DNA of 64,000 nucleotides from an archaeon (GTDB lineage Archaea; Nanobdellota; Nanobdellia; SCGC-AAA011-G17; GW2011-AR17). The notes beneath the pieces are model-generated. The model saw nothing but the letters and a program-made list of their open reading frames with translations, was not told where the DNA came from and did no database searches. Location of the stretch: the NCBI GenBank assembly GCA_018692925.1, contig JABHLH010000013.1, forward strand, positions 7,206-71,205. Direction: 5' to 3'. Both the position numbers and the translations under genes were made by a program. Shown here in pieces: positions 1,397-58,089 of this stretch. Positions within the stretch are counted from its first letter, which is position 1. Each line of letters starts with the position of its first letter.

Positions 1397-2557
1397 TTAC
1401 CTCAACCTATTCAAATAAGTTAAAATTAACAAAATAACAAAAACTGCAAAAGCTCCACCAACTGCTAAAGGCCAAAAGTTACTTTCTTCATCAACATCTG
1501 TATTGAACAATTTCTGTTCAACAACACCATCTTCTGAACTAACTTCTACTAAAACACTTTGGTAACCACTTTCTTCTGGACTCAAAGTATAATATAATTC
1601 GCTACTTGAACCAGCTGGTACTGTTACACTTTCTGTATAATCTGCATCCATTCCACTTACTGTTAAATAAAATGTTTTTGAACTTTCACCTAAGTTACTA
1701 ACTTGAACTTTGAAACTACTATCTTCATTAACTTCTAAATCTTTAATTGTTTGAAATGAAACCACAGCATTTTCATCATAAACTGTTGCATCACTATTAA
1801 TTCTCAAATAGTTTGAATCTTCAACTTCTGTATTTCCATCATTATATTCAACTTCAACTTTAATTTCATAAACTCCTTCACTTACTCCTTCAGGAATAGT
1901 CAAATAAACTGTACTTACATCTGCTTCTTCATCAACTTCTAAATCATCTAAATATTCTCTATTTGAAATACCTAATTCTGGAATTGAAACTGTAACTCTC
2001 AGATCTTCTTCATCCATTTCACCTTGATTATCTAATCTAACTTTAACACCTAAATAGTCTCCTTCACTTACTGAACTTGAAGACAAAATAATATCTTTCA
2101 CTAAAATATTATGTCTTTCAGCTTCGAAAAACAAACTATATTCTTCAGTTTCTCTTTCTTGTGAATCATAAACTTCTACATGTAAAGTATATTCATTACT
2201 TGAAACATCTAGATCTTCAGGAATGTCTAAATACAAAGTTTTTCTATATGAAACTCCATTTTCAATATCAAAAGTTTCTGTATATTCTTCTATAGTATCA
2301 AATTCATATCCACCAATCCAGGTTTTAATTTTTACATCAGTTGTATCACCAGTACCTTCTAAGTGTACAGTAATTTGAGCAGAATCTCCTCTCTCAACTT
2401 GTACCATTTGATCAGCACTTGGACTAATTCCATTAATGTAAACTTTACTAATTTCATAATTATCTGAGTCTGCATTTACAATTGGCACAAAAGCCAACAT
2501 TATCATAAATAAACACATTATTTTTTTTATCATCTTTTTATAAATCTCCACAAGCAT
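1397..2557 (-). CDS. cell-surface protein with CARDB-like beta-sandwich repeats and a C-terminal TM anchor
   Basis: Signal peptide (likely true start MIKKIMCLFMIMLAFVPIVNA|DSD). Repeated acidic modules of the type 'NQGEMDEEDLRVTVSIPE...TIPEGVSEGVYEIKVEVEYNDG'. C-terminal hydrophobic helix plus basic tail: WPLAVGGAFAVFVILLILTYLNRLR. Confidence 0.6.
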   Translation of the reverse strand: MLVEIYKKMIKKIMCLFMIMLAFVPIVNADSDNYEISKVYINGISPSADQMVQVERGDSAQITVHLEGTGDTTDVKIKTWIGGYEFDTIEEYTETFDIENGVSYRKTLYLDIPEDLDVSSNEYTLHVEVYDSQERETEEYSLFFEAERHNILVKDIILSSSSVSEGDYLGVKVRLDNQGEMDEEDLRVTVSIPELGISNREYLDDLEVDEEADVSTVYLTIPEGVSEGVYEIKVEVEYNDGNTEVEDSNYLRINSDATVYDENAVVSFQTIKDLEVNEDSSFKVQVSNLGESSKTFYLTVSGMDADYTESVTVPAGSSSELYYTLSPEESGYQSVLVEVSSEDGVVEQKLFNTDVDEESNFWPLAVGGAFAVFVILLILTYLNRLR

Positions 2558-3164
2558 CTCTAAACATAACTGTATAAATTAATCTTTGACCAGCTAAATC
2601 TTTATGATCTGGATCAAATCTATCAATTCTTTCACCAGCTCTATAAACATCTAACATAGTACCATCATTATCATTATAATTCAAAACAAATCTTTCTTCA
2701 CCTTTCTCACATTCCATTTCAGTTCTACCTTGACCTAACATTAAACCAAAATAACTATCAGTACCTTTTTCTAATCTTTTAATTAAAGTACTTGAAATAT
2801 TACTCCAATCATCTTTTGTGATATAACCATTATCTGACCCAATTTCTTCTAATTGATTATCAGTTCCTTCATCCCAAGCTCCAAAAACAACTAAGGATCC
2901 ATCAATACTTTCACCTAATCTTTCATTATCAACACAACTAACTGTTAAATCATTATTTTGATATTTCAAAAAACAATCTTCAAAAGCTAAAACTCCACCA
3001 TCTTCATCTTCATAATGAACATCTTGTAAAAAAGCATAACTTGCACCATCTCTAGTAACTCCATGTTCTTGCATAGCTTTTACTAACTTCATTGAATCTG
3101 TATCTGCTTTACTTGTACCTAATAGAATTGGTACTAGTCCTGTTAATATTAATCTTTTATTCAT
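2538..3164 (-). CDS. secreted hypothetical protein (208 aa)
   Basis: Signal-like N-terminus MNKRLILTGLVPILLGTSKA|DTD. Same strand and tight spacing with the neighbouring surface genes. Confidence 0.5.
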   Translation of the reverse strand: MNKRLILTGLVPILLGTSKADTDSMKLVKAMQEHGVTRDGASYAFLQDVHYEDEDGGVLAFEDCFLKYQNNDLTVSCVDNERLGESIDGSLVVFGAWDEGTDNQLEEIGSDNGYITKDDWSNISSTLIKRLEKGTDSYFGLMLGQGRTEMECEKGEERFVLNYNDNDGTMLDVYRAGERIDRFDPDHKDLAGQRLIYTVMFRDACGDL

Positions 3165-3342: not shown

Positions 3343-3678
3343 TTATTCTATATATACACTCATTTGACCAATCCAAAATTCATCTGACCAAGCACCTTCA
3401 GGAGTATATACTATACAATCCACTAAATCACCTTGTTTTGTATAATTACTATTCAAAATACTTTCTTCCCCAGTACTATTATGAACCTCTTCATGATTAA
3501 CTTGCCAATAGAAGTCAAAAATCCCATCATAATCCACACTACAAGTTACATTATCACTTGAGCTTGGAGTTTCAGGACTTATCCAAATCTCTGGAGAATA
3601 CCCAGTACAAGATTGATTTCCACATCCTAATAAAGGAATAAATGCGCCTAACATCACCATTTTTTCTAATTTTTTCAT
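3343..3678 (-). CDS. lipoprotein carrying one copy of the 'FDFYW' domain
   Basis: Lipobox MVMLGAFIPLLG|CGNQ. The body (SPETPSSSDNVTCSVDYDGIFDFYWQVNHEEV...GDLVDCIVYTPEGAWSDEFWIGQMSVYIE) is collinear with two N-terminal modules of the 780-aa protein. Confidence 0.6.
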   Translation of the reverse strand: MKKLEKMVMLGAFIPLLGCGNQSCTGYSPEIWISPETPSSSDNVTCSVDYDGIFDFYWQVNHEEVHNSTGEESILNSNYTKQGDLVDCIVYTPEGAWSDEFWIGQMSVYIE

Positions 3679-3780: not shown

Positions 3781-4284
3781 ATGGAATTAATAAAAGAAAT
3801 AAAAGACAAAGAAATTCCAAGTAATGATTCTAATTTAAAAATAAGAGAAGCCTCAAGAGCTATTCTTTTTGAAGAAAATAATTTAATTCCATTATTATTT
3901 GTTTCAAAATATGATTACCATAAACTTCCAGGTGGAGGAATTGATGAAGGAGAAAATAAAACAGAAGCCCTTATAAGAGAATGTTTAGAAGAAGTAGGAA
4001 GTACCATAAAGATAAATGGAGAAGTTGGAAAAATTATTGAATTCAGATCAAAATGGGATTTAAAACAAACATCTTATTGTTTTTATGGAAATATTATTTC
4101 TAAAGGAAAGCCAGATTTTACAGAAAAAGAATTAAGTCAAGGTTTCAAAATAATTTGGTTACCATTAAAAGAAGCAATTTCACAAATTGAAAATGATACG
4201 CCTAAAAATTATGAAGGTGAATTTATACAAAAAAGAGATTTAGAATTTCTAAAAAAACTTGAACAAATATTAAAAAAAAATTAA
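3781..4284 (+). CDS. NUDIX hydrolase
   Basis: Nudix box GGIDEGENKTEALIRECLEEVGS fits Gx5Ex7REUxEExGU. Confidence 0.85.
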   Translation: MELIKEIKDKEIPSNDSNLKIREASRAILFEENNLIPLLFVSKYDYHKLPGGGIDEGENKTEALIRECLEEVGSTIKINGEVGKIIEFRSKWDLKQTSYCFYGNIISKGKPDFTEKELSQGFKIIWLPLKEAISQIENDTPKNYEGEFIQKRDLEFLKKLEQILKKN

Positions 4285-6623
4285 AAAATAGATTTAAGAA
4301 AATCCATTAGATTATCCCAAAATGTTTTTACAACTGGATCATCGCTTACAGTATTATATTCAACTAAATCACCTAAACTTGTAATTTCTAAGTTGATTAC
4401 TTCACTATAATCTAGATCTTCATTTTCAATTGAAACTTCCAATCCATATTTTCCTGTTTCTAAACCTTCTGGAATTTCTACTGTATAAACAGCATATCCT
4501 TTTTCATTTCTATCTAAGTCACTAAAGCTTGCAAAACATTCTTCACCAGCGATAATAAAACTAATATCTAAGTTTTGAGCATCGAAACTATTTTTATTTA
4601 ACATTTCAATATAAACTTTAATTTCATTATCTCCAGAGTCAGTTTCTAGATAACCATTTTCAACAAAGTAAGCACCACTGATTTCTAAGCTTAAACCAGA
4701 AACATCATAAGCAGAGTACAAATTGTTTGCATTCATAACTAATACTTCTGAAACACTTAAGTCAGTACCTTCATAGTTACTTCCATCAGCATCATTACCA
4801 TCATCGTCACCATCATTGTCACCATCATCATCTCCGTCATCATCGCCATCATCATCAGCTTCTGAAACAAAGATTCTAAAGTATGTTGAATCACTTAATT
4901 CACCATCACTTACAGTAACGAAAACAATATATTCACCAGCATCTCCTTCTTCAGTTGTCCATGTAAACTGATTATCATTAACATCAGCTTCATCTACACC
5001 TTCAAAGGTATAACTTAGATCATCTCCATCAGCATCACTAGCAGAAGCTTCAACTTCAACAGTTTCACCTTCTTCTACATACTGATCTTCAATGTCATCT
5101 AATTCAGGTGCTTGATTATCATCAACAACTTCTTCAGCTAAAACTATAACTAAAAATGTATCAATAATTTCACACTCATTATCAGTAACTGTAATAGTAA
5201 CTTCATAAACACCAGCATCTCCTTCTTCAGTTTGCCACAGACCATTATTTTCCATTGGCTCACTAAATGATGTAATTAAAATATCTCCATCAGCATCTGA
5301 AACTGTGTAATCAGCAACAGCTAATTCACCTTCATAAACTGTAATATCTTCTACACTTACAACAGGACAAGTATTTTCAACTTCAACATCTTCAGCTAAA
5401 ACTGTAACTAAAAAGGTATCTGTAATTTCACACTCATTATCAGTAACTGTAATAGTAACTTCATAAACACCAGCATCGCCTTCTTCAGTTTGCCACTGAC
5501 CGTTATTTTCCATTGGCTCACTAAATGATGTAATTAAAATATCTCCATCAGCATCTGAAACTATGTAATCAGCAACAGCTAATTCACCTTCATAAACTGT
5601 AATATCTTCTGCACTAACAACAGGACAAATATTTTCAATTTCCACTTCTTCTTCATTTACAGTAATTGTAATATTTCCAATTGAAATGTTTGAATCAGTA
5701 TCCATAACTCTCATACTTGTTTCATAAACACCAGCATCGCCAACAACAGTTTGCCATTCACCAATTAAATCTGCTAAAGGTAAACCAAATTCATATCTTA
5801 ATTCATCTTCTAAAGAATCAGAATCGTAAACATAAATTGTTTGACTTTCCATTAAATCAGTCATGCTACTATAAAAAAAGTAAGTCATAAAATTATTTGT
5901 ATAAACAACATCAACATTTACAAATTCTCCTTCATCAACTGAAAAGAAAATATCTGTAACTGCAGGTGCATAAGTTTCATCTTCTTCAATTACTACATCA
6001 TCACAACTATCAATTGTAACACTAGCACTTCCGATTTCAAAACTATCATACCATGCACTTTCAGGAACCCAAACAGATAATATCCATGTATCATCAACTG
6101 CTGTATAAGAATCATCTAAAACAGATTCATTATCAGTTTCTGATAAATAAACACTTCCATCTCTCATCCAATAAAAATCAAATGTAGTATCTTCATAACC
6201 TTCAACATAACCTGTTAAATTATCTTCATCACAAGGCTCAGAAGGATCAATAACTACATTACCATAATCAAATGTTGGTACATCTCCTTCGATTGTAACA
6301 CTAGCACTTCCATATTCAAAACTATCATACCAAGCACTTTCAGGCACCCAAACAGAAACTGTCCAGATTTCACCAGCGTCAGTAACTGAGCTACCTAAAC
6401 TAGATGAACTACCTGTACTTGATTTATAAGTTGCTCCATCTTTAATCCAATAGAAATCGAAGCTTGTACTTTCTTCTCCTTCAACAAATGCATTAAGTGT
6501 ATCTTCTGTACTTGGACTTGTTGGATCAATTACAACAGTTCCAGCACTAGCTACACTCATTGCTAGGATTAAAAACAATAAGATTAAAATTGTTTTTTTC
6601 ATCATTTTATTTTTGTCCTCCAT
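4281..6623 (-). CDS. large secreted multi-domain adhesin-like protein (780 aa)
   Basis: Signal peptide MMKKTILILLFLILAMSVASA|GT. Two 'FDFYW' modules. Four cadherin/He_PIG-like Ig modules (...SDADGD..TSF..G.WQTEEGDAGVYEVTITVTD...), two of them near-identical. Poly-Asp/Gly linker DDDGDDDGDDDGDNDGDDDGNDADG. C-terminal CARDB-like module (TVEIPEGLETGKYGLEVSIENED). Confidence 0.75.
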   Translation of the reverse strand: MEDKNKMMKKTILILLFLILAMSVASAGTVVIDPTSPSTEDTLNAFVEGEESTSFDFYWIKDGATYKSSTGSSSSLGSSVTDAGEIWTVSVWVPESAWYDSFEYGSASVTIEGDVPTFDYGNVVIDPSEPCDEDNLTGYVEGYEDTTFDFYWMRDGSVYLSETDNESVLDDSYTAVDDTWILSVWVPESAWYDSFEIGSASVTIDSCDDVVIEEDETYAPAVTDIFFSVDEGEFVNVDVVYTNNFMTYFFYSSMTDLMESQTIYVYDSDSLEDELRYEFGLPLADLIGEWQTVVGDAGVYETSMRVMDTDSNISIGNITITVNEEEVEIENICPVVSAEDITVYEGELAVADYIVSDADGDILITSFSEPMENNGQWQTEEGDAGVYEVTITVTDNECEITDTFLVTVLAEDVEVENTCPVVSVEDITVYEGELAVADYTVSDADGDILITSFSEPMENNGLWQTEEGDAGVYEVTITVTDNECEIIDTFLVIVLAEEVVDDNQAPELDDIEDQYVEEGETVEVEASASDADGDDLSYTFEGVDEADVNDNQFTWTTEEGDAGEYIVFVTVSDGELSDSTYFRIFVSEADDDGDDDGDDDGDNDGDDDGNDADGSNYEGTDLSVSEVLVMNANNLYSAYDVSGLSLEISGAYFVENGYLETDSGDNEIKVYIEMLNKNSFDAQNLDISFIIAGEECFASFSDLDRNEKGYAVYTVEIPEGLETGKYGLEVSIENEDLDYSEVINLEITSLGDLVEYNTVSDDPVVKTFWDNLMDFLKSIF
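5131..5646. repeat. near-identical tandem duplication, 2 x 258 nt, inside the adhesin gene
   Basis: Units 5131-5388 and 5389-5646 differ at only a handful of positions by eye. Each encodes one Ig-like module (VENxCPVVSxEDITVYEGELAVADYxVSDADGDILITSFSEPMENNGxWQTEEGDAGVYEVTITVTDNECEI). Confidence 0.9.
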
Positions 6624-6632
6624 CTACCTCAA

Positions 6633-8105
6633 TTAAAAGTTAACTTTAACTCCAGCTTTTCCTACATGTGAATAACTTGTATTTCCACCACTTGCACCAT
6701 TACCCATATTTAGTAATTCATAACCTACTCCTAATTCAACAGGACCTAAGTTTAAACCTAAACCTAAATTTGGATTAACATATGCATCAACATCAGAAAT
6801 TTGACCTGCATCTTGTGAAGTTTTTGTACCAGTATATTTACTTAGAACTAAACCAGCTTCTAAATCAACAGGACCAACTGAATAAATTAAACCAGCTTCT
6901 GCACCAAGTACAGTTGTTGGATCCACTGTCATATTATAATTTTCTAAATCAACATCAGTTCTAACATTACCAACTCCACCATAAACACCAAAGCCTAAAT
7001 CAACATTTTCAGTATCTAAAGTAATTCCAGCTTCAACTGCAACAGTTTTTCTTGAAGTATTAGCATCCACACCAGCGTAATGAACATCTGCAAATCTTGC
7101 ATCAGCTCTTCCACCAACTAATAAAGCTAAATTTCCATTCATTGGAATTGCATAAGCAACTAAACCTGTAGCATCAATTAAACCAACTTTGTTTAATCTT
7201 GCATCGTCATAGTTAATTTTTGCACCTAAAACATCAGCTTGAATAACTAAAGCACCAATACCTGTAGGAATAGCTAATCCACCAACAAATTCTAAACCAC
7301 TTCCAGATAAGTTTGCACCACTGTCTTGTCTACTATTTTCTTTTAAGTAAACAGCACTTAATCCAAAGTTACCAAAAACACTTCTAGCTTCTTCGTATTT
7401 TACAACAGGAGCAGCTTCAGGAATAACAACAACATTAGGTGCTGTTCCAGGAACAACAATAACATTATTTGTTTCATTAGTAGTTTGTCCAGTATAATTT
7501 AATTCTAATTTTGTAATTCTTTCTTCATGATCTACAATTGTAACTTCTAAAGCAAGAACTCTTCCAGTTAAACCAGTTAATTCTTCTTCGTCAATACATC
7601 CATCATCTTCAGCAGCTTCTTTAGCTTCTTCACCTAACATATCTTTAGGCATTAAGAATGAGCTAACATTGTCGAAGTAAATTCCATCTTCACCATTTCT
7701 AGTTCTAAACATTAATTCTGGAATAAGATTTCCATCGTCATCAAATCTTGTTTTAGTTGTTCTAATCATTGAGAAACTTCCCCAATCTATATCATAACCA
7801 TAATCAACCCATTGTGTATCTGAACCTAAATACAATTCTTTTGTAGCTTCATCAGCACAAGCCATATTTAATTCATAAATTCTTCCACCTTTCATCAAAG
7901 CTTCAGCAATTTCTTGAGTTTCTTCTAAATTTTGTTCAATTCCATCGTAGTGACCCACTAAAGCAACTGCAGTTTTACCCCAAACAGTTTGACCTTCAGG
8001 TACTTCTACTCTAATTGCGTCTTCACACATATCATCCGCTCTAGCAACATTTGCAGCTAACAAACTAGCAGCTAAAATTGGACTTAATAACATATTTCTA
8101 TTCAT
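6633..8105 (-). CDS. secreted protein with an outer-membrane-like beta-barrel C-terminal domain (490 aa)
   Basis: Signal peptide MNRNMLLSPILAASLLAANVARA|DD. The C-terminal ~250 aa is Gly/Ala/Val-rich with alternating hydrophobic/polar strands. It ends ...SHVGKAGVKVNF (terminal Phe, beta-signal-like). Confidence 0.8.
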   Translation of the reverse strand: MNRNMLLSPILAASLLAANVARADDMCEDAIRVEVPEGQTVWGKTAVALVGHYDGIEQNLEETQEIAEALMKGGRIYELNMACADEATKELYLGSDTQWVDYGYDIDWGSFSMIRTTKTRFDDDGNLIPELMFRTRNGEDGIYFDNVSSFLMPKDMLGEEAKEAAEDDGCIDEEELTGLTGRVLALEVTIVDHEERITKLELNYTGQTTNETNNVIVVPGTAPNVVVIPEAAPVVKYEEARSVFGNFGLSAVYLKENSRQDSGANLSGSGLEFVGGLAIPTGIGALVIQADVLGAKINYDDARLNKVGLIDATGLVAYAIPMNGNLALLVGGRADARFADVHYAGVDANTSRKTVAVEAGITLDTENVDLGFGVYGGVGNVRTDVDLENYNMTVDPTTVLGAEAGLIYSVGPVDLEAGLVLSKYTGTKTSQDAGQISDVDAYVNPNLGLGLNLGPVELGVGYELLNMGNGASGGNTSYSHVGKAGVKVNF

Positions 8106-8200
8106 TTTTTATAACCTCGCGAGTTTAATTACCACTAGAAAATAACAAACCCTTTATAAACCTTTGTTTTTAACACCACTTAAGAGTAGCACTCAAAAGC

Positions 8201-8208
8201 TTTATAAA
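8201..8208 (+). promoter_or_regulatory. TATA box (aaagcTTTATAAAgg) about 23 nt upstream of the ATG at 8231
   Basis: The same TTTATAAA motif recurs 23-27 nt upstream of many start codons in this window, which implies leaderless transcripts. Confidence 0.45.
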
Positions 8209-8230
8209 GGCCAATAAATAACTCCAACCC

Positions 8231-8449
8231 ATGGTTAAAGTACACACAAGAGCTAAGAGAAGAAATGGTTCAGCTACAGGTCTAAGATTAAAAAGACCAC
8301 AAAATAGAATAAGAAAAACTAGACCAAAAACTTTCAAAAGCGAAGAAATTGCAAAGAAATGGGCAGAATCTCAAGGAATTAAAGCTTATACTCTAAAGAA
8401 CTTAAGAATTGGAGAAAAAGATAAAAAAATTGCTGTTATTCCAAATTAA
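8231..8449 (+). CDS. small, highly basic protein (72 aa)
   Basis: MVKVHTRAKRRNGSATGLRLKRPQNRIRKTRPKTFKSEE... The N-terminal half is Arg/Lys-rich. It has its own TATA and is the only short plus-strand gene within the surface island. Confidence 0.5.
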   Translation: MVKVHTRAKRRNGSATGLRLKRPQNRIRKTRPKTFKSEEIAKKWAESQGIKAYTLKNLRIGEKDKKIAVIPN

Positions 8450-8909
8450 GTTCGTCTTCATCTTCTAAATCTTCTTTTTTTGGACTTAACAAGTTTGCTA
8501 TTACTAAAACTATTACTATAAATAACATCAACCAAAAGAATAATTCTGCACTTGATTTTGAACAAACACTAGCCCATTCATCATAACTAGGACAACTACT
8601 TCCTTCTTCAGAATTTTCTTCAACTACATTACCTTCTAATTCATCATCAGTATTATCATCAGTACTTTCATCAGAACCATCATCATTACCACAACAACAT
8701 CTTTCTAGATCTTCACAATACTCAAAACCAAAGACATCATCATCATCATTACCGTCACAAAAACCCTCTTCTGTAGTTTCTTTACAAGAACCATAATCAT
8801 AACTTTCATCTTGACAGTAATCATCACAATCACTTGCCAAAGCTACTTGAAAACTTAACAAAAGAACCAAAACCAAAACTAAAATTTTTATTTTTTTCAT
8901 ATATGCCAC
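8436..8909 (-). CDS. Cys-rich, highly acidic type-I membrane protein
   Basis: Signal peptide (KILVLVLVLLLSFQVALA|SD). Ectodomain with about 12 Cys and D/E runs. One TM helix (LFFWLMLFIVIVLVIANLL). Same architecture as 48440..48865. Confidence 0.55.
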   Translation of the reverse strand: MAYMKKIKILVLVLVLLLSFQVALASDCDDYCQDESYDYGSCKETTEEGFCDGNDDDDVFGFEYCEDLERCCCGNDDGSDESTDDNTDDELEGNVVEENSEEGSSCPSYDEWASVCSKSSAELFFWLMLFIVIVLVIANLLSPKKEDLEDEDELNLE

Positions 8910-10534: not shown

Positions 10535-11173
10535 TTATCTTAGATAAGTTCGTGTTTTCTTTGCATTAGCTTCTGAAATTGCTTTTCTTCCACCAATTTT
10601 TCCAAAAGGAATTTTCAAAGATTCACCGTCACAACCATAAACAACTAAACCAATATCTGCTCTCTTATCTGTTGGAAAACTAAATCCACTTAAATCTCTT
10701 AAATTTAAATCATTTCTTCCATCGATTTGAACATTTGGTAGACTGTATAAAGCATCTGTTCCTAAAAATCCAGCATCTCTAAATGCATAAATTCCTACAG
10801 ATCTAATACCTTGTTTATCTGTAACTACACCTTCTAATAATAGATGTCCACCGCTAATATAAGCTTGAGGTTTACTATCATAAGTAGGTCCTTCTCTGTC
10901 TCTTTTAGCTCCAGCACAAACATCATCAACTGTTACGATTACTCTTTTAGGTTTTTCCTTTTCCTCAACAGGTTCATCTGTTTCTGGAACAACAGGAATA
11001 ACTAAAATTTCTTCAGTTGCTTCAGGTTCTGTAGCTTCTGTATCATTACATCCAGGCATAAAATATCCACCTAAAAGACCAGCACCAACTAATGCAGCTC
11101 CTACTCCAGCAAATTTTCCATTCCTTTTATTTACCCAACTTGGCATTGTTACCATTTTTTTTTTATTTCCCAC
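10535..11173 (-). CDS. membrane-anchored protein with a C-terminal Ig-like domain
   Basis: TM/anchor FAGVGAALVGAGLLGGYFMPG|C, a Pro/Glu-rich linker, then ISGGHLLLEGVVTDKQGIRSVGIYAF...IGLVVYGCDGES. The track start is GTG; the ATG at 11155 (MVTMPSW) is an alternative. Confidence 0.55.
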   Translation of the reverse strand: MGNKKKMVTMPSWVNKRNGKFAGVGAALVGAGLLGGYFMPGCNDTEATEPEATEEILVIPVVPETDEPVEEKEKPKRVIVTVDDVCAGAKRDREGPTYDSKPQAYISGGHLLLEGVVTDKQGIRSVGIYAFRDAGFLGTDALYSLPNVQIDGRNDLNLRDLSGFSFPTDKRADIGLVVYGCDGESLKIPFGKIGGRKAISEANAKKTRTYLR

Positions 11174-12704: not shown

Positions 12705-13805
12705 TTAAACAAACTCAATACCCAATTCACTTTCAATTTCCTTTTTTTGTTTGTCAGTTTTTGGTACATGTCCTAAAATCTGTGGACTATTAACTCCTGT
12801 AACAATCAATAAAACCTTCAAACCACTACCAAGATCTTCAGAAATTTGAGCTCCCCAAATAATTCTTGCATCGTCATCCAATTTACCTGAAATTGACTCA
12901 ACAACTTGCTTAGCTTCCTCCAAAGTCATATCGTTTCCACCAAGAACATTAACTAAAGCACCAGAAGCACCAGTAATATCAACATCTAACAAAGGATTAT
13001 TAATTGCTTTTTCTACAGCATCCATAGCTCTATTATCCGAATCAGCTTCTCCAATTCCAATCATAGAAACTCCACCATTTCCCATAACTGCTCTAATATC
13101 AGCAAAATCTAAATTTACTAAACCTGTTTTTGTAACTAATTCAGCAATTCCTTTAACAGCATTTGTTAAAATTTCATCAGCAACCTTAAAAGCAGTTTGC
13201 AATGGCAAATCAGGAGCCAATTCTAGTAATTTATCGTTAGGAATAACAATTAAAGTATCAACATTTTTTTCTAATTTTTCTAAACCAATCATAGCATTCT
13301 CGTATCTTCTTTGTCCTTCCATTTCAAAAGGAATAGTAACAATAGCAACTGTTAATGCTCCACCTTTCTTAGCAATTTCTGCAACCACAGGAGCTGTACC
13401 AGTTCCAGTACCACCTCCTAAACCACAAGTAATGAATAACATATCTGCACCAGCTATCTTTTGTTTAATCTCTGCCTCGGACTCTCTAGCTGCATCCTCA
13501 CCAACTTTTGGATTAGAACCAGCACCTAGACCTTGAGTCAACTCTTTTCCTACCAAGATCTTAACATCTGCATTAGTATACAATAAATCCTGAGCATCAG
13601 TATTAATAGCCAATGTTTCTGTACCAATAATACCTACATCACTCATTCTAGTAATAGAATTATTTCCTCCACCACCACAGCCAACAACCTTAATTTTAGA
13701 CTTCTGTCTAGCTATAATAGCTTCAAGTTCTTCATCAATAGCATGAACTTTTCTTCCCTTTTCTTCTTCAGCTCTATCACTTGCTTGTTGAAAAATAGTA
13801 TCCAT
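12705..13805 (-). CDS. ftsZ: cell-division protein FtsZ (paralogue 1)
   Basis: Tubulin signature GLGGGTGTGTAPVVAEIAKK, VVGCGGGGNN, T7 loop NLDFADI, C-terminal peptide ELGIEFV. Confidence 0.95.
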   Translation of the reverse strand: MDTIFQQASDRAEEEKGRKVHAIDEELEAIIARQKSKIKVVGCGGGGNNSITRMSDVGIIGTETLAINTDAQDLLYTNADVKILVGKELTQGLGAGSNPKVGEDAARESEAEIKQKIAGADMLFITCGLGGGTGTGTAPVVAEIAKKGGALTVAIVTIPFEMEGQRRYENAMIGLEKLEKNVDTLIVIPNDKLLELAPDLPLQTAFKVADEILTNAVKGIAELVTKTGLVNLDFADIRAVMGNGGVSMIGIGEADSDNRAMDAVEKAINNPLLDVDITGASGALVNVLGGNDMTLEEAKQVVESISGKLDDDARIIWGAQISEDLGSGLKVLLIVTGVNSPQILGHVPKTDKQKKEIESELGIEFV

Positions 13806-16859: not shown

Positions 16860-17867
16860 TTATACCACCAACTCCAAACTTGATTGTGATCTACCAAAAA
16901 TACTTTTTCTTAAAGTAGATATTTTTTTAACTAAATCAACTTTATCCCAAACAGGTCTCTTCAAAGGAACAGGATTTAAAAATTCATTAAAAAATTCTTG
17001 CATTGGTTTAGGAACACTATCTGGATACCAATGTGTAGCTGGATTACCACCTAAAGCATAAATCATAGTAACACCTAAGGAATATAAATCTGATTGTCTC
17101 AAAGGAGGTTTTAAACTTAAAATTTCAGGTGCTGCAAAAACTTCAGTATACCCTTCAGGCTTAACACCTTTTTTTGGTCTTAAAGTTGAAAAACCAAAAT
17201 CTACCAAAATAGCATTATGTTCTCTTGCTTTAATCATTATATTTGCTGGTTTTACATCTCCATGTACAATTCCATGATAATGCATATAATTTAAAGCATT
17301 AAGAAGTCTTTGAGTCATCCAAGCAGCGTGTTCAGGTTCTAAAACTTTTCCTTCAGTTCTTCTTTTTTCAACAATTTTATCTAAAGAAAATCCTTCCACA
17401 TAAGACATTGCTAAAACACAGCTTCCATCTTCAAGTCTAAAAAAAGATCTATATCCAGGTAAAGAATGATGATGAAGTCTACTTAATATTTCTGATTCTC
17501 TTTCCATAATTACAATATCATCTGAAGAGATATGAATATTTTGTTTCAAACAAGCCAATGCTCCTGAAGTAACTTCTCTCGCTTTGTAAGTTACACCAAA
17601 TCCACCTTCTCCAATTTGTTCTAAAACTTGATAATTACCAATTTGAGTTTCATTTTGCTTTCTCCATGCTTTATCATATGCAGCTCTATTAACAGGATCT
17701 AAAAGAACTTCTTTTGCTTTATTGAAAGAAACACCTTTAGAAAAACTACCACCAACATCCTCATGACCACCATTTAACATATGTGCTCTATAAGCTGCTT
17801 TAACAACAAAATCTGGAGCTTTAGGATCAACCCCTAACAATTGATATAAATTTTTTAGATTACTCAT
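16860..17867 (-). CDS. Hanks-type Ser/Thr protein kinase with an N-terminal degenerate J-domain
   Basis: J-like: LYQLLGVDPKAPDFVVKAAYRAHMLNGGHED...LLDPVNRAAYDKAW, with HED in place of HPD. Kinase motifs: IGEGGFGVTYKA, ACLK, HGIVHGDVKPANIM, VDFGFS, AAPE. Confidence 0.85.
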   Translation of the reverse strand: MSNLKNLYQLLGVDPKAPDFVVKAAYRAHMLNGGHEDVGGSFSKGVSFNKAKEVLLDPVNRAAYDKAWRKQNETQIGNYQVLEQIGEGGFGVTYKAREVTSGALACLKQNIHISSDDIVIMERESEILSRLHHHSLPGYRSFFRLEDGSCVLAMSYVEGFSLDKIVEKRRTEGKVLEPEHAAWMTQRLLNALNYMHYHGIVHGDVKPANIMIKAREHNAILVDFGFSTLRPKKGVKPEGYTEVFAAPEILSLKPPLRQSDLYSLGVTMIYALGGNPATHWYPDSVPKPMQEFFNEFLNPVPLKRPVWDKVDLVKKISTLRKSIFGRSQSSLELVV

Positions 17868-43084: not shown

Positions 43085-47460
<4,376 letters not shown>

Positions 47461-47477
<17 letters not shown>

Positions 47478-57009: not shown

Positions 57010-58089
57010 ATGGAATTTTTACTACAAGACGCTTTAGCGAATCTACAGGAAAACCAGACACAAACACCAGCAACAGAAATTGGCCAAGCAAATATTAAAG
57101 TAATTGGCTGTGGTGGAGGCGGAGGAAACGTCGCAAATTGGCTCTATAAAAAAGGAGTACAAGGAGCAGAAATCATTGTTATGAATACTGATAAACAGCA
57201 TCTAGATATGATAGAAGCTGATAAAAAAATGTTAATTGGAAGAGACCTTACCAGAGGTCTTGGATGTGGAGGATTTCCACAAAAAGGTGCAGAAGCTGCA
57301 AAAGAACAAATGTCTGAAATTAAAAAAAGTTTAAAAAATTCTGACATGGTTTTCATCACTGCTGGAATGGGTGGAGGAACTGGAACAGGTTCAGCTCCAG
57401 TTGTAGCTCAGGTTGCAAAAGAAGAAGGAGCTATAGTTATTGGTTCTGTTACAATGCCTTTTTCAATTGAAAGAGCAAGAATTGATAAAGCTGAATATGG
57501 TTTACAACAATTAAGAAATGTTTGTGATACAGTTATTGTAATTGACAACAACAGACTGGTAGAAATTGCAGGAAACTTACCAGTTCAACAAGCTTTTGCA
57601 GTTGCTAATGAATTAGTATCCACAATGATTAAAGGAATTGTTGAAATCATAGCTGTACCTTCTTTAGTAAACTTAGATTATGCAGACGTAAAAGCAATTA
57701 TGTCTAATGGTGATGTCTCAGTAGTTGGCATTGGAGAATCTAACACAGAAAGAAGAGTTGATGAGGCTGTTCGAAGAGCTCTTGATAATCCACTATTAGA
57801 AGTAAGTTATGAAGGCGCTACAGGTGCTTTAATCCATGTTGCTGGAGGTCCTGATTTAACCTTGGATGAAGTTAATCAAGTTGGTGAAATGATCACTGAA
57901 GCACTTGATTCTGATGCAAATGTTATTTGGGGTGCAAGAATAAATAATGATATGAAAGGCAAGTTAAGAATTATGGCAATCATAACAGGAGTACAGTCCC
58001 CATATATTTTAGGAAAAGCAAGCCACAGAGAAACACAACAAAAAAAACATACAATGTCAAACACTTTAGGAGTAGATTTTTGCAGATAA
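57010..58089 (+). CDS. ftsZ: cell-division protein FtsZ (paralogue 2)
   Basis: [38 protein letters not shown]-terminal LGVDF. Confidence 0.95.

Follow-up and report, generated by a model that had tools for sequence, protein, structure and literature searches.

A Woesearchaeota protein family with a predicted outer-membrane-type beta-barrel, encoded beside a secreted immunoglobulin-repeat protein

Analysis of a 64,000-nucleotide stretch of archaeal DNA (positions 7,206 to 71,205 of contig JABHLH010000013.1, GenBank assembly GCA_018692925.1; hereafter the window, whose numbering is used throughout) points to a family of envelope proteins whose C-terminal domain is confidently predicted to form a 12-stranded beta-barrel of the outer-membrane-protein (OMP) type. 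The gene in question is an open reading frame (ORF) at 6633..8105 on the minus strand, which starts with ATG, encodes 490 aa plus a stop codon and has homologues P0001-P0015. In textbooks, OMP-type transmembrane beta-barrels serve to mark out diderm bacteria, mitochondria and plastids. Archaea have been described as having neither OMP-type barrels nor the machinery that inserts them (PMC7613921). The explanation favored here, and considered probable, is that a lineage-specific archaeal barrel of this type serves as the membrane anchor or pore of a surface-adhesin module.

Under this explanation, the gene product would be an envelope protein of two parts, exported through the Sec pathway: an antiparallel 12-stranded barrel whose lumen is polar, made up of the last ~250 aa, and a globular N-domain of ~135 aa that hangs from this barrel via a helix or Pro-rich stalk. 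The barrel, whose C-terminus resembles the beta-signal read by BAM and SAM, would insert either spontaneously or via an insertase. Its gene appears to share an operon with that of a large secreted protein made of immunoglobulin-like (Ig) repeats, which has no membrane anchor of its own. On this view, a module for attachment at the cell surface may be anchored in the membrane by the barrel, which possibly also acts as its pore; the exposed or bridging part would consist of the stalked N-domain together with the Ig-repeat partner. A preliminary description, drawn from the sequence, had already proposed an outer-membrane-type barrel at this locus; what the present analysis adds is the likeness of the 12-stranded architecture to autotransporters and the conservation of an operon that also encodes an Ig-repeat surface protein.

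Predicted fold of the C-terminal domain

The barrel domain spans aa 241-490 (6636..7385, minus strand), and its assignment draws on AlphaFold 2 (AF2) modeling, Foldseek comparisons, hydropathy and sub-threshold Pfam matches. Modeling with three close homologues gave a pLDDT of 30 and no usable structure. With an alignment of 14 diverse sequences, aa 241-490 reached a mean pLDDT of ~86 and were modeled as 12 antiparallel strands of 13-19 residues (aa 244-258, 266-281, 284-299, 306-321, 326-343, 346-364, 368-385, 393-410, 413-429, 435-453, 456-468 and 477-489). Since it took diverse homologues to lift the score from 30 to ~86, the model appears to be supported by covariation rather than to be a guess driven by composition. 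Six amphipathic stretches singled out in the preliminary description coincide with strands 1, 3, 5, 6-7, 8-9 and 10-11 of this model.

A Foldseek search of the PDB returned 265 matches at E<=1e-3, and all 50 of the matches listed are bacterial outer-membrane barrels. The best target-normalized TM-scores among the matches listed belong to BrkA (0.54), EspP (0.53), OpcA (0.52), NalP (0.51) and Hbp (0.50). Superpositions on autotransporters gave TM-scores of 0.49-0.54 with a root-mean-square deviation (RMSD) of 6-7 Å over ~270 columns, and EstA (3kvn) superposed with a TMq of 0.35. When the viral structure library BFVD was searched, only OMP-type barrels were recovered, all phage-borne, with DUF481 at a TM-score of 0.54. 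It is from these superpositions that strand 1 is predicted to close on strand 12. The preliminary description had named an open beta-sandwich or an S-layer-type domain as the competing outcome; neither emerged, considering the 12 strands modeled at a pLDDT of ~86 and the listed PDB matches, every one of them a barrel.

Hydropathy averaged over the family revealed 4-6 alternating positions per strand with Kyte-Doolittle (KD) values >2, forming a predicted lipid-facing belt of ~10 residues, while positions in the opposite phase are strongly polar. This hydrophobic belt adjoins the short turns. One side of the model holds the short turns and the two chain ends, the other the longer, conserved polar extensions, a predicted layout that is the same as in bacterial OMPs. 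The last 250 residues contain 16% Gly, 12% Val, 11% Leu and 10% Ala. Conserved motifs of the domain include APLxGxGL, DARxAxVxYAGVxAxTGQxAVGPE, GxGNVxTxVDxxGYxxTxD and TTQDGG, and the chain usually ends in Phe or Trp. The far-side motifs, together with D335, R337 and E358, charged residues that face the lumen in the model, are invariant or nearly so in the family.

At the sequence level, homologues of the protein gave several sub-threshold Pfam matches, all inside the C-domain: OMP_b-brl (7.9e-5 and 5e-4), Porin_3 (5.8e-4), PorP_SprF and MipA. All of these are membrane-barrel families, a result consistent with the predicted fold. The two OMP_b-brl (PF13505) matches score 23.3 and 20.7 bits against a cut-off of 28.7, and the Porin_3 match scores 19.8 bits against 28.4, so that they fall below the gathering thresholds. 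The window protein itself matches no Pfam barrel family.

Amphipathicity was handled with caution. A crude beta-amphipathicity score ranked an Ig-like CARDB protein of the window above the barrel protein and was rejected as evidence for that reason. Considering that alternating hydrophobicity cannot tell a barrel from a sandwich, the claim is carried by structure-based and comparative evidence. The amphipathicity argument of the preliminary description therefore holds in part: the strands it proposed are borne out by AF2, but sequence alone is insufficient to establish a barrel, as the higher score of the CARDB protein illustrates.

Architecture and termini of the barrel protein

The N-terminus, MNRNMLLSPILAASLLAANVARA followed by DD, displays the n-, h- and c-regions and the A-x-A site of a Sec signal peptide of the signal peptidase I type (aa 1-23, 8037..8105, minus strand), in agreement with the cleavable signal peptide proposed earlier for this ORF. 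Signal peptides of the window protein and its homologues were judged by eye on the sequences; in the family alignment, the homologues keep cleavage sites of the AxA type, AFA before Q, or similar.

The N-terminal globular domain (aa ~24-160, 7626..8036, minus strand) comprises ~135 aa, with invariant D96, D140 and D145 and the motifs SDTxxV and DGIxxD in the family alignment. AF2 models it as a mixed alpha/beta fold at low to moderate confidence (pLDDT 40-75), and no Pfam, NCBIfam or PDB match was found for it. A LysM-like or POTRA-like identity was considered on the basis of the motif Y-x-V-x-x-G-T-x-L-W and a predicted beta-alpha-alpha-beta-beta order; it had no HMM support, model confidence was low, and it is not claimed. 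The following stalk or linker (aa ~161-240, 7386..7625, minus strand), delimited by alignment and AF2, is modeled as a helix at residues 173-204 and then an extended Pro/Val/Ala-rich segment, in a conformation that is unreliable at pLDDT 35-45. The helical form is confined to the subgroup of the window protein, and most family members have a longer linker rich in Pro, Ala, Glu and Val. A BLAST comparison with all window ORFs found no paralogue of either the N- or the C-domain.

The protein ends in the octapeptide K-A-G-V-K-V-N-F-COOH (6636..6659, minus strand), which had been put forward as a beta-signal. In a scan with the strict pattern [polar]xGxx[hydrophobic]x[FWY]$, it was the sole match among the 77 window ORFs of >=100 aa. 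Across the family, six of 12 complete C-termini fit the strict pattern, and ten of the 12 end in F or W. The subgroup formed by P0005 and P0011 (locus L013) has no canonical beta-signal and carries two conserved Cys residues near its end (VRCE...KLKCL; VRCEAG...AQCAVKKEW), which suggests a disulfide-stabilized variant of the last hairpin.

Family, distribution and archaeal origin

Relatives of the barrel protein are few. A word-indexed search of 5.8 billion proteins retrieved only three close relatives, and an exhaustive HMMER search of 1.84 billion cluster representatives retrieved 13 relatives in total. Repeating the word-based search with the 14-sequence alignment again yielded only the three close relatives, probably because words from the low-complexity linker swamped the candidates; the metagenome scan used a five-sequence sub-alignment of the C-domain. 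Family members share the order of signal peptide, variable N-domain with three invariant Asp residues, helix or Pro/Ala/Val/Glu-rich linker, and conserved C-domain. All relatives with readable context lie on archaeal-type contigs, and two are named as Woesearchaeota; for example, MBI5797510.1, annotated as a "hypothetical protein", is a family member in a Candidatus Woesearchaeota metagenome-assembled genome.

The window is archaeal, as the preliminary description had stated of its informational genes: it encodes class I LysRS, aEF-1alpha, aEF-2, Cbf5 with a DKCLD domain, GatD, Orc1/Cdc6, HerA and two FtsZ proteins. Gene-for-gene synteny was observed in 16 of 17 loci from NCBI, JGI, ENA and Logan assemblies (GC 30-46%; one on a 517-kb contig). 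The conserved order comprises a 117-134-aa protein, an MMR_HSR1 GTPase, a Cys-rich transmembrane (TM) protein, a divergently oriented 72-aa basic protein, the barrel protein, the giant Ig-repeat protein, a lipoprotein-like protein of ~112 aa, a CARDB protein with a C-terminal TM helix and a Cas4-like nuclease, and the cluster is flanked by Orc1/Cdc6, aIF5A, FtsZ and SMC/ScpA genes. At one locus (L018, 865-2088), a Cas12f1/TnpB-like gene of the IS200/IS605 type is inserted between the GTPase and Cys-rich protein genes. The sole member outside this synteny, P0010 (locus L006, GCA_964359695.1), is flanked by shikimate/cytidylate kinase-like, His_Phos_1 and HAD genes and has no downstream Ig-repeat gene; it has the best OMP_b-brl score in the family and a textbook C-terminus, VYMGLQFEF.

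GC content at third codon positions (GC3) of the barrel gene is 0.092, within the range of the window (mean 0.133 +/- 0.034). GC content at the gene is slightly raised (0.337 versus ~0.29), a rise that is confined to codon positions 1 and 2 and is attributed to the Gly/Ala content of the protein. The gene also strongly favors T-ending codons, a hint of high expression. The barrel domain retains only ~30% identity across lineages, versus 50-73% for its neighbors, which makes it the fastest-evolving gene of the cluster; such a rate would be expected of an exposed component.

Comparative sequence evidence therefore indicates that the barrel gene is genuine and has been inherited vertically within a Woesearchaeota (DPANN) clade. 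On the grounds of synteny and native GC3, it is rejected as highly improbable that the segment is an assembly chimera, contaminating bacterial DNA or a recent acquisition from a Gram-negative donor: although proteins of this type otherwise belong to bacteria and the local GC content is somewhat elevated, the gene order with its archaeal flanks recurs in independent assemblies from all four sources, including the 517-kb contig, the GC rise spares the third codon position, and no bacterial homologue was found by HMMER among the 1.84 billion representatives. The concern about contamination raised in the preliminary description is thereby answered, and the bacterial acquisition that it offered as an explanation is unsupported as a recent event. 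An ancient bacterial origin may or may not underlie the gene.

Probable operon partner and neighboring genes

Immediately downstream of the barrel gene lies the gene of the secreted Ig-repeat protein (PKD/He_PIG/Big_9 domain matches; 4281..6623, minus strand), which is taken to be co-transcribed with it by adjacency and is present in every locus where the contig continues, except L006. With that same exception, the Ig-repeat gene begins 9-39 nt after the barrel gene in every sufficiently long locus. In the window, translation of this gene probably begins at the ATGATG at ~6605, which has a GGAGG before it. Across loci, the partner comprises 690-895 aa and has a signal peptide and no TM anchor. 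It carries a conserved, amphipathic C-terminal tail ending in Phe, FWDNLMDFLKSIF in the window and FWDKIGAFFSSLF and FWDALKSFFGSLF elsewhere (L001 11458-13530, L007 2882-5569, L013 11628-13790), which might be a signal for docking or for association with a membrane, perhaps directed at the barrel protein. In homologue P0009, a single Ig repeat, 54% identical to the window repeats, is fused between the signal peptide and the N-domain, a domain fusion which suggests that the barrel and Ig-repeat genes are functionally tied.

The divergent intergenic region upstream (8106..8230) contains TTTATAAA boxes and, 9 nt before the barrel ATG, a GAGGT Shine-Dalgarno sequence, both read directly from the sequence. 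The TTTATAAA boxes are consistent with an archaeal promoter but are no evidence for one, the genome being AT-rich. Beyond this region, a gene for a 72-aa basic protein (MVKVHTRAKRR...KDKKIAVIPN; 8231..8449, plus strand) serves as a synteny marker, being divergent from the barrel gene in all 17 loci (e.g., L001 9657-9875 and L013 9732-9950) at 61-90% identity. The protein has no Pfam or PDB match, and its conservation, far higher than that of its neighbors, suggests a housekeeping role in nucleic-acid or ribosome binding.

Further members of the cluster, recognized by synteny, domain matches or shared repeats, include a Cys-rich secreted protein with a C-terminal TM helix (8436..8909, minus strand, from the ORF list and synteny), a 111-aa lipoprotein-like protein (3343..3678, minus strand) and a 386-aa surface protein of the CARDB/FixG_C type with a C-terminal TM anchor (1397..2557, minus strand). 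The Ig-repeat giant carries an N-terminal repeat of ~100 aa (FDFYW...VWxPExAWxDxFxxGxxSVxI), a unit without a Pfam match; the 111-aa protein, which has an LLGCG lipobox-like motif, amounts to one copy of this unit. A NUDIX hydrolase gene (3781-4284, plus strand) and a 208-aa secreted ORF (2538-3164, minus strand) also lie inside the cluster; both are absent at the same position in L001 and L013 and are therefore regarded as lineage-specific insertions. Several small secreted or lipobox-like proteins without a family match are encoded at 10535-11173, 1019-1390 and 8436-8909, all on the minus strand. Considering these small secreted proteins around the cluster, the first ~11 kb of the window are essentially an island of envelope-protein genes.

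Membrane location and alternative explanations

Several observations weigh against the barrel as anchor or pore of an adhesin module. All of the structural evidence is prediction, and the N-domain and linker are modeled at low confidence. Closure of the barrel is deduced entirely from TM-scores of ~0.5 to closed barrels, a value at the fold threshold, with an RMSD of 6-7 Å at best. Sequence searches of Pfam, NCBIfam and the PDB, with the single protein and with family profiles, gave nothing significant, all NCBIfam matches having E >= 1e-3. Only around one in two family members has the strict beta-signal. Neither the 64-kb window nor the flanks of the homologues, which cover a fraction of each genome, showed an Omp85/BamA, a periplasmic chaperone or a second barrel protein. 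The tie to the Ig-repeat protein is drawn from gene adjacency and one domain fusion, and the literature searched contains no report of an outer membrane in Woesearchaeota.

If the protein is a membrane barrel, three locations can be envisaged. An outer-membrane-like layer of the archaeon itself is the foremost of them, at somewhat less than an even chance, followed on equal and lower terms by the archaeon's own cytoplasmic membrane and by a host-cell membrane at the point of contact. The wider proposal that a Woesearchaeota clade has a true outer lipid membrane, or a second bilayer at the host interface, holding its own family of OMP-type barrels is put forward tentatively, with the balance of probability against it. 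The literature searched offers nothing specific on a described archaeal OMP barrel family or on the envelope ultrastructure of Woesearchaeota. In ARMAN, Altiarchaeum, Ignicoccus and Methanomassiliicoccus, which all engage in close interactions with partners, two membranes have been reported; the cryo-electron tomography (cryo-ET) reports on symbiotic archaea include DPANN ARMAN cells and Altiarchaeum (PMC4243693). A possible porin-like relative of PopA has been noted in Altiarchaeales (PMC12228718).

For a diderm archaeon, the protein could act as an outer-membrane tether or porin whose stalked N-domain reaches back to the cytoplasmic membrane or wall, as in OmpM, SlpA or OmpA, with a BamA-like or novel insertase reading the beta-signal. 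This possibility deserves to be taken seriously, even if it is doubtful. In the topology derived from the hydrophobic belt, the N-terminus and stalk would lie on the cis side together with the short turns, the beta-signal-like C-terminus is largely conserved, and the succession of signal peptide, binding domain, helix or linker and C-terminal barrel parallels OmpM (PMC10628300); the double membranes of other symbiotic archaea and the PopA relative provide possible precedents. However, besides the missing reports of a Woesearchaeota outer membrane, no gene for Omp85, Skp, SurA or another barrel was seen in the window and flanks, and the Ig-repeat partner and CARDB protein, with their signal peptides and C-terminal TM helix, look like surface proteins of single-membrane archaea. 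An outer membrane served by one barrel family would also be odd.

The canonical layout of archaeal surface proteins consists of a signal peptide, a functional domain, a Pro-rich stalk and a C-terminal anchor. It is conceivable, if unlikely, that the barrel follows this layout as an anchor in the archaeon's cytoplasmic membrane, where it would insert spontaneously from outside after Sec export and replace the usual C-terminal TM helix, with the Pro-rich stalk displaying an N-domain that holds the anchorless Ig-repeat protein. An N-domain on the cis side fits this arrangement, as does a partner that has no anchor but a conserved C-terminal tail. On the other hand, no native beta-barrel protein is known in any cytoplasmic membrane; a 12-stranded barrel with a polar lumen would leak in an energized membrane unless plugged, and its best-conserved polar loops would end up on the cytoplasmic side, an outcome difficult to square with unassisted insertion from outside. 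The scheme is parsimonious for a one-membrane cell, needing neither a second membrane nor an insertase, and spontaneous insertion of barrels into liposomes has been documented in vitro (PMC13018214). If true, it would provide the first native barrel in an energized membrane.

To about the same slight degree, the protein may be directed at a partner cell. In that case the barrel of an episymbiont would insert itself into the membrane of its host, possibly the outer membrane of a Gram-negative bacterium, and either tether the cells via the stalk and the Ig-repeat adhesin or open a channel for nutrients. Known pore-forming toxins that insert from outside are oligomeric and not monomeric 12-stranded barrels, and a BAM-type beta-signal would be useless from outside the host. 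Nevertheless, the barrel is the fastest-evolving gene of an otherwise conserved cluster, as anticipated for a host-interaction factor, and it is paired with an adhesin-like Ig-repeat protein. A symbiotic lifestyle also fits, as DPANN archaea are mostly obligate ectosymbionts and the abundances of Woesearchaeota and Pacearchaeota correlate with bacterial communities (PMC6349945).

A further explanation dispenses with the membrane, assuming that AF2 over-predicts barrels for Gly-rich amphipathic hairpins and that the true form is a soluble or lattice beta-structure such as an S-layer or sheath component. The alignment is indeed shallow (14 sequences), Ig-like proteins of the window match the barrel protein in the crude dyad amphipathicity score, TM-scores are only ~0.5, and no curated family is matched above threshold. 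Such an artefact is nonetheless quite improbable, given that pLDDT rose from 30 to ~86 only with diverse homologues, that the strand length of 13-19 residues, the Gly content of 16%, the alternate face being polar with conserved charges, and the terminal aromatic residue are features of barrels rather than sandwiches, and that the structural neighbors in BFVD and all 50 listed PDB matches are transmembrane barrels. The membrane-embedded barrel, acting as anchor or pore of an adhesin module, hence remains the favored explanation.

Other features of the window

Outside the envelope island, the two FtsZ paralogues are located at 12705-13805 (minus strand) and 57010-58089 (plus strand) within the same 64 kb, DNA gyrase B and A at 43145-47477, and a eukaryote-type Ser/Thr protein kinase at 16860-17867. 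GC3 is very low across the whole window (mean 0.13), and GC skew is strongly negative where genes lie on the minus strand. Neither a tRNA gene nor an Rfam family was found in the 64-kb window.

Significance

The fold itself is known. What appears to be new, judging by the searchable literature, is the family as such, its confinement to a Woesearchaeota clade, the conserved operon that it forms with an Ig-repeat gene and its occurrence in archaea. Curated HMM libraries miss the family. An archaeal barrel family offers a molecular handle on several questions: whether some DPANN archaea have a second membrane, whether barrels can be assembled without Omp85, and how partner cells are attached to or tapped. 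Together with its Ig-repeat partner, the barrel protein is a defined target for antibodies, cryo-ET labeling and heterologous reconstitution. Should the outer-membrane location prove correct, this would be the first barrel with a beta-signal from an archaeal outer membrane. Its existence would then imply either novel archaeal machinery for barrel insertion or self-assembly independent of BAM, and a barrel-based outer membrane would not be confined to Bacteria and their organelle descendants.

Comparison with known systems

Type Va autotransporters (BrkA 3qq2, EspP 2qom, NalP 1uyn, Hbp 3aeh, EstA 3kvn) share with the window protein the order of signal peptide, extracytoplasmic N-domain, linker and C-terminal 12-stranded barrel with an aromatic end, and they provide the best superpositions for the modeled C-domain. 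Homologue P0009, in which an Ig-like "passenger" repeat is placed N-terminal to the rest, adds to this likeness. However, no family member matches the autotransporter beta-domain Pfam family PF03797 at E<=1, the N-domain of the window protein is a ~135-aa alpha/beta unit and not a large beta-helix passenger, and the adhesin-like repeats reside on a separate downstream gene with its own signal peptide. A counterpart of the autotransporter pore helix could be sought in the helix at aa 173-204, whose placement is unreliable at pLDDT 35-45 and which other members replace with Pro-rich linkers. The host also differs, being an archaeon without a known outer membrane or BAM.

Intimin and invasin (type Ve) likewise combine a signal peptide, a small N-domain and a 12-stranded barrel with associated tandem Ig-like adhesin repeats, and the gene order here, barrel before Ig repeats, mirrors the domain order of intimin. 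The repeats of the archaeal system are carried on a separate polypeptide, though, there is no LysM match in Pfam, and intimin/invasin barrels are absent among the 50 structural matches listed. Among the class features compared, LysM and a fused Ig-repeat passenger are lacking, and strand number alone agrees.

The tether-porins OmpM and SlpA of diderm Terrabacteria (PMC10628300, PMC9388160) resemble the family in their layout, in which a signal peptide and a binding domain at the N-terminus are followed by a helical stalk and finally the barrel, and the predicted topology puts the N-domain of the window protein on the corresponding cis, periplasm-like side. They differ in that no family member has an SLH match in Pfam, that their barrels, joined to a trimeric coiled-coil stalk, have 16 to 30 strands versus 12 here, and that Pro-rich linkers replace the helical stalk in most family members.

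Among small OMP barrels (OMP_b-brl PF13505, OpcA, OmpT/Pla, DUF481), the likeness consists of weak profile matches to OMP_b-brl and TM-scores of 0.52 to OpcA and 0.54 to DUF481; as in OpcA and the omptins, the strands reach well past the membrane belt. On the other hand, profile scores lie under the curated cut-offs, these barrels have 8-10 strands versus 12, and no counterpart was identified in them for the far-side motifs YAGVxAxTG, GNVxTxVDxxGYxxTxD and TTQDGG. The Omp85/TpsB proteins are set apart by 16 strands versus 12, and the family has no POTRA or Bac_surface_Ag match.

Ignicoccus (Ihomp1) and other double-membrane archaea are comparable as archaeal hosts in close interaction with partner organisms. 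The dominant outer-membrane protein of Ignicoccus is small and alpha-helical, not a beta-barrel. For double-membrane archaea in general, no OMP-type barrel family is described in the literature searched, beyond the passing mention in Altiarchaeales.

Considered as a whole, the hallmarks of the outer-membrane beta-barrel class, namely a signal peptide, an even-stranded barrel, a hydrophobic belt and a beta-signal, are all present by prediction, while curated sequence thresholds are not reached. The barrel protein belongs to none of the families compared here; by analogy, its closest functional counterparts would be type V secretion or anchor proteins, or stalked tether-porins.

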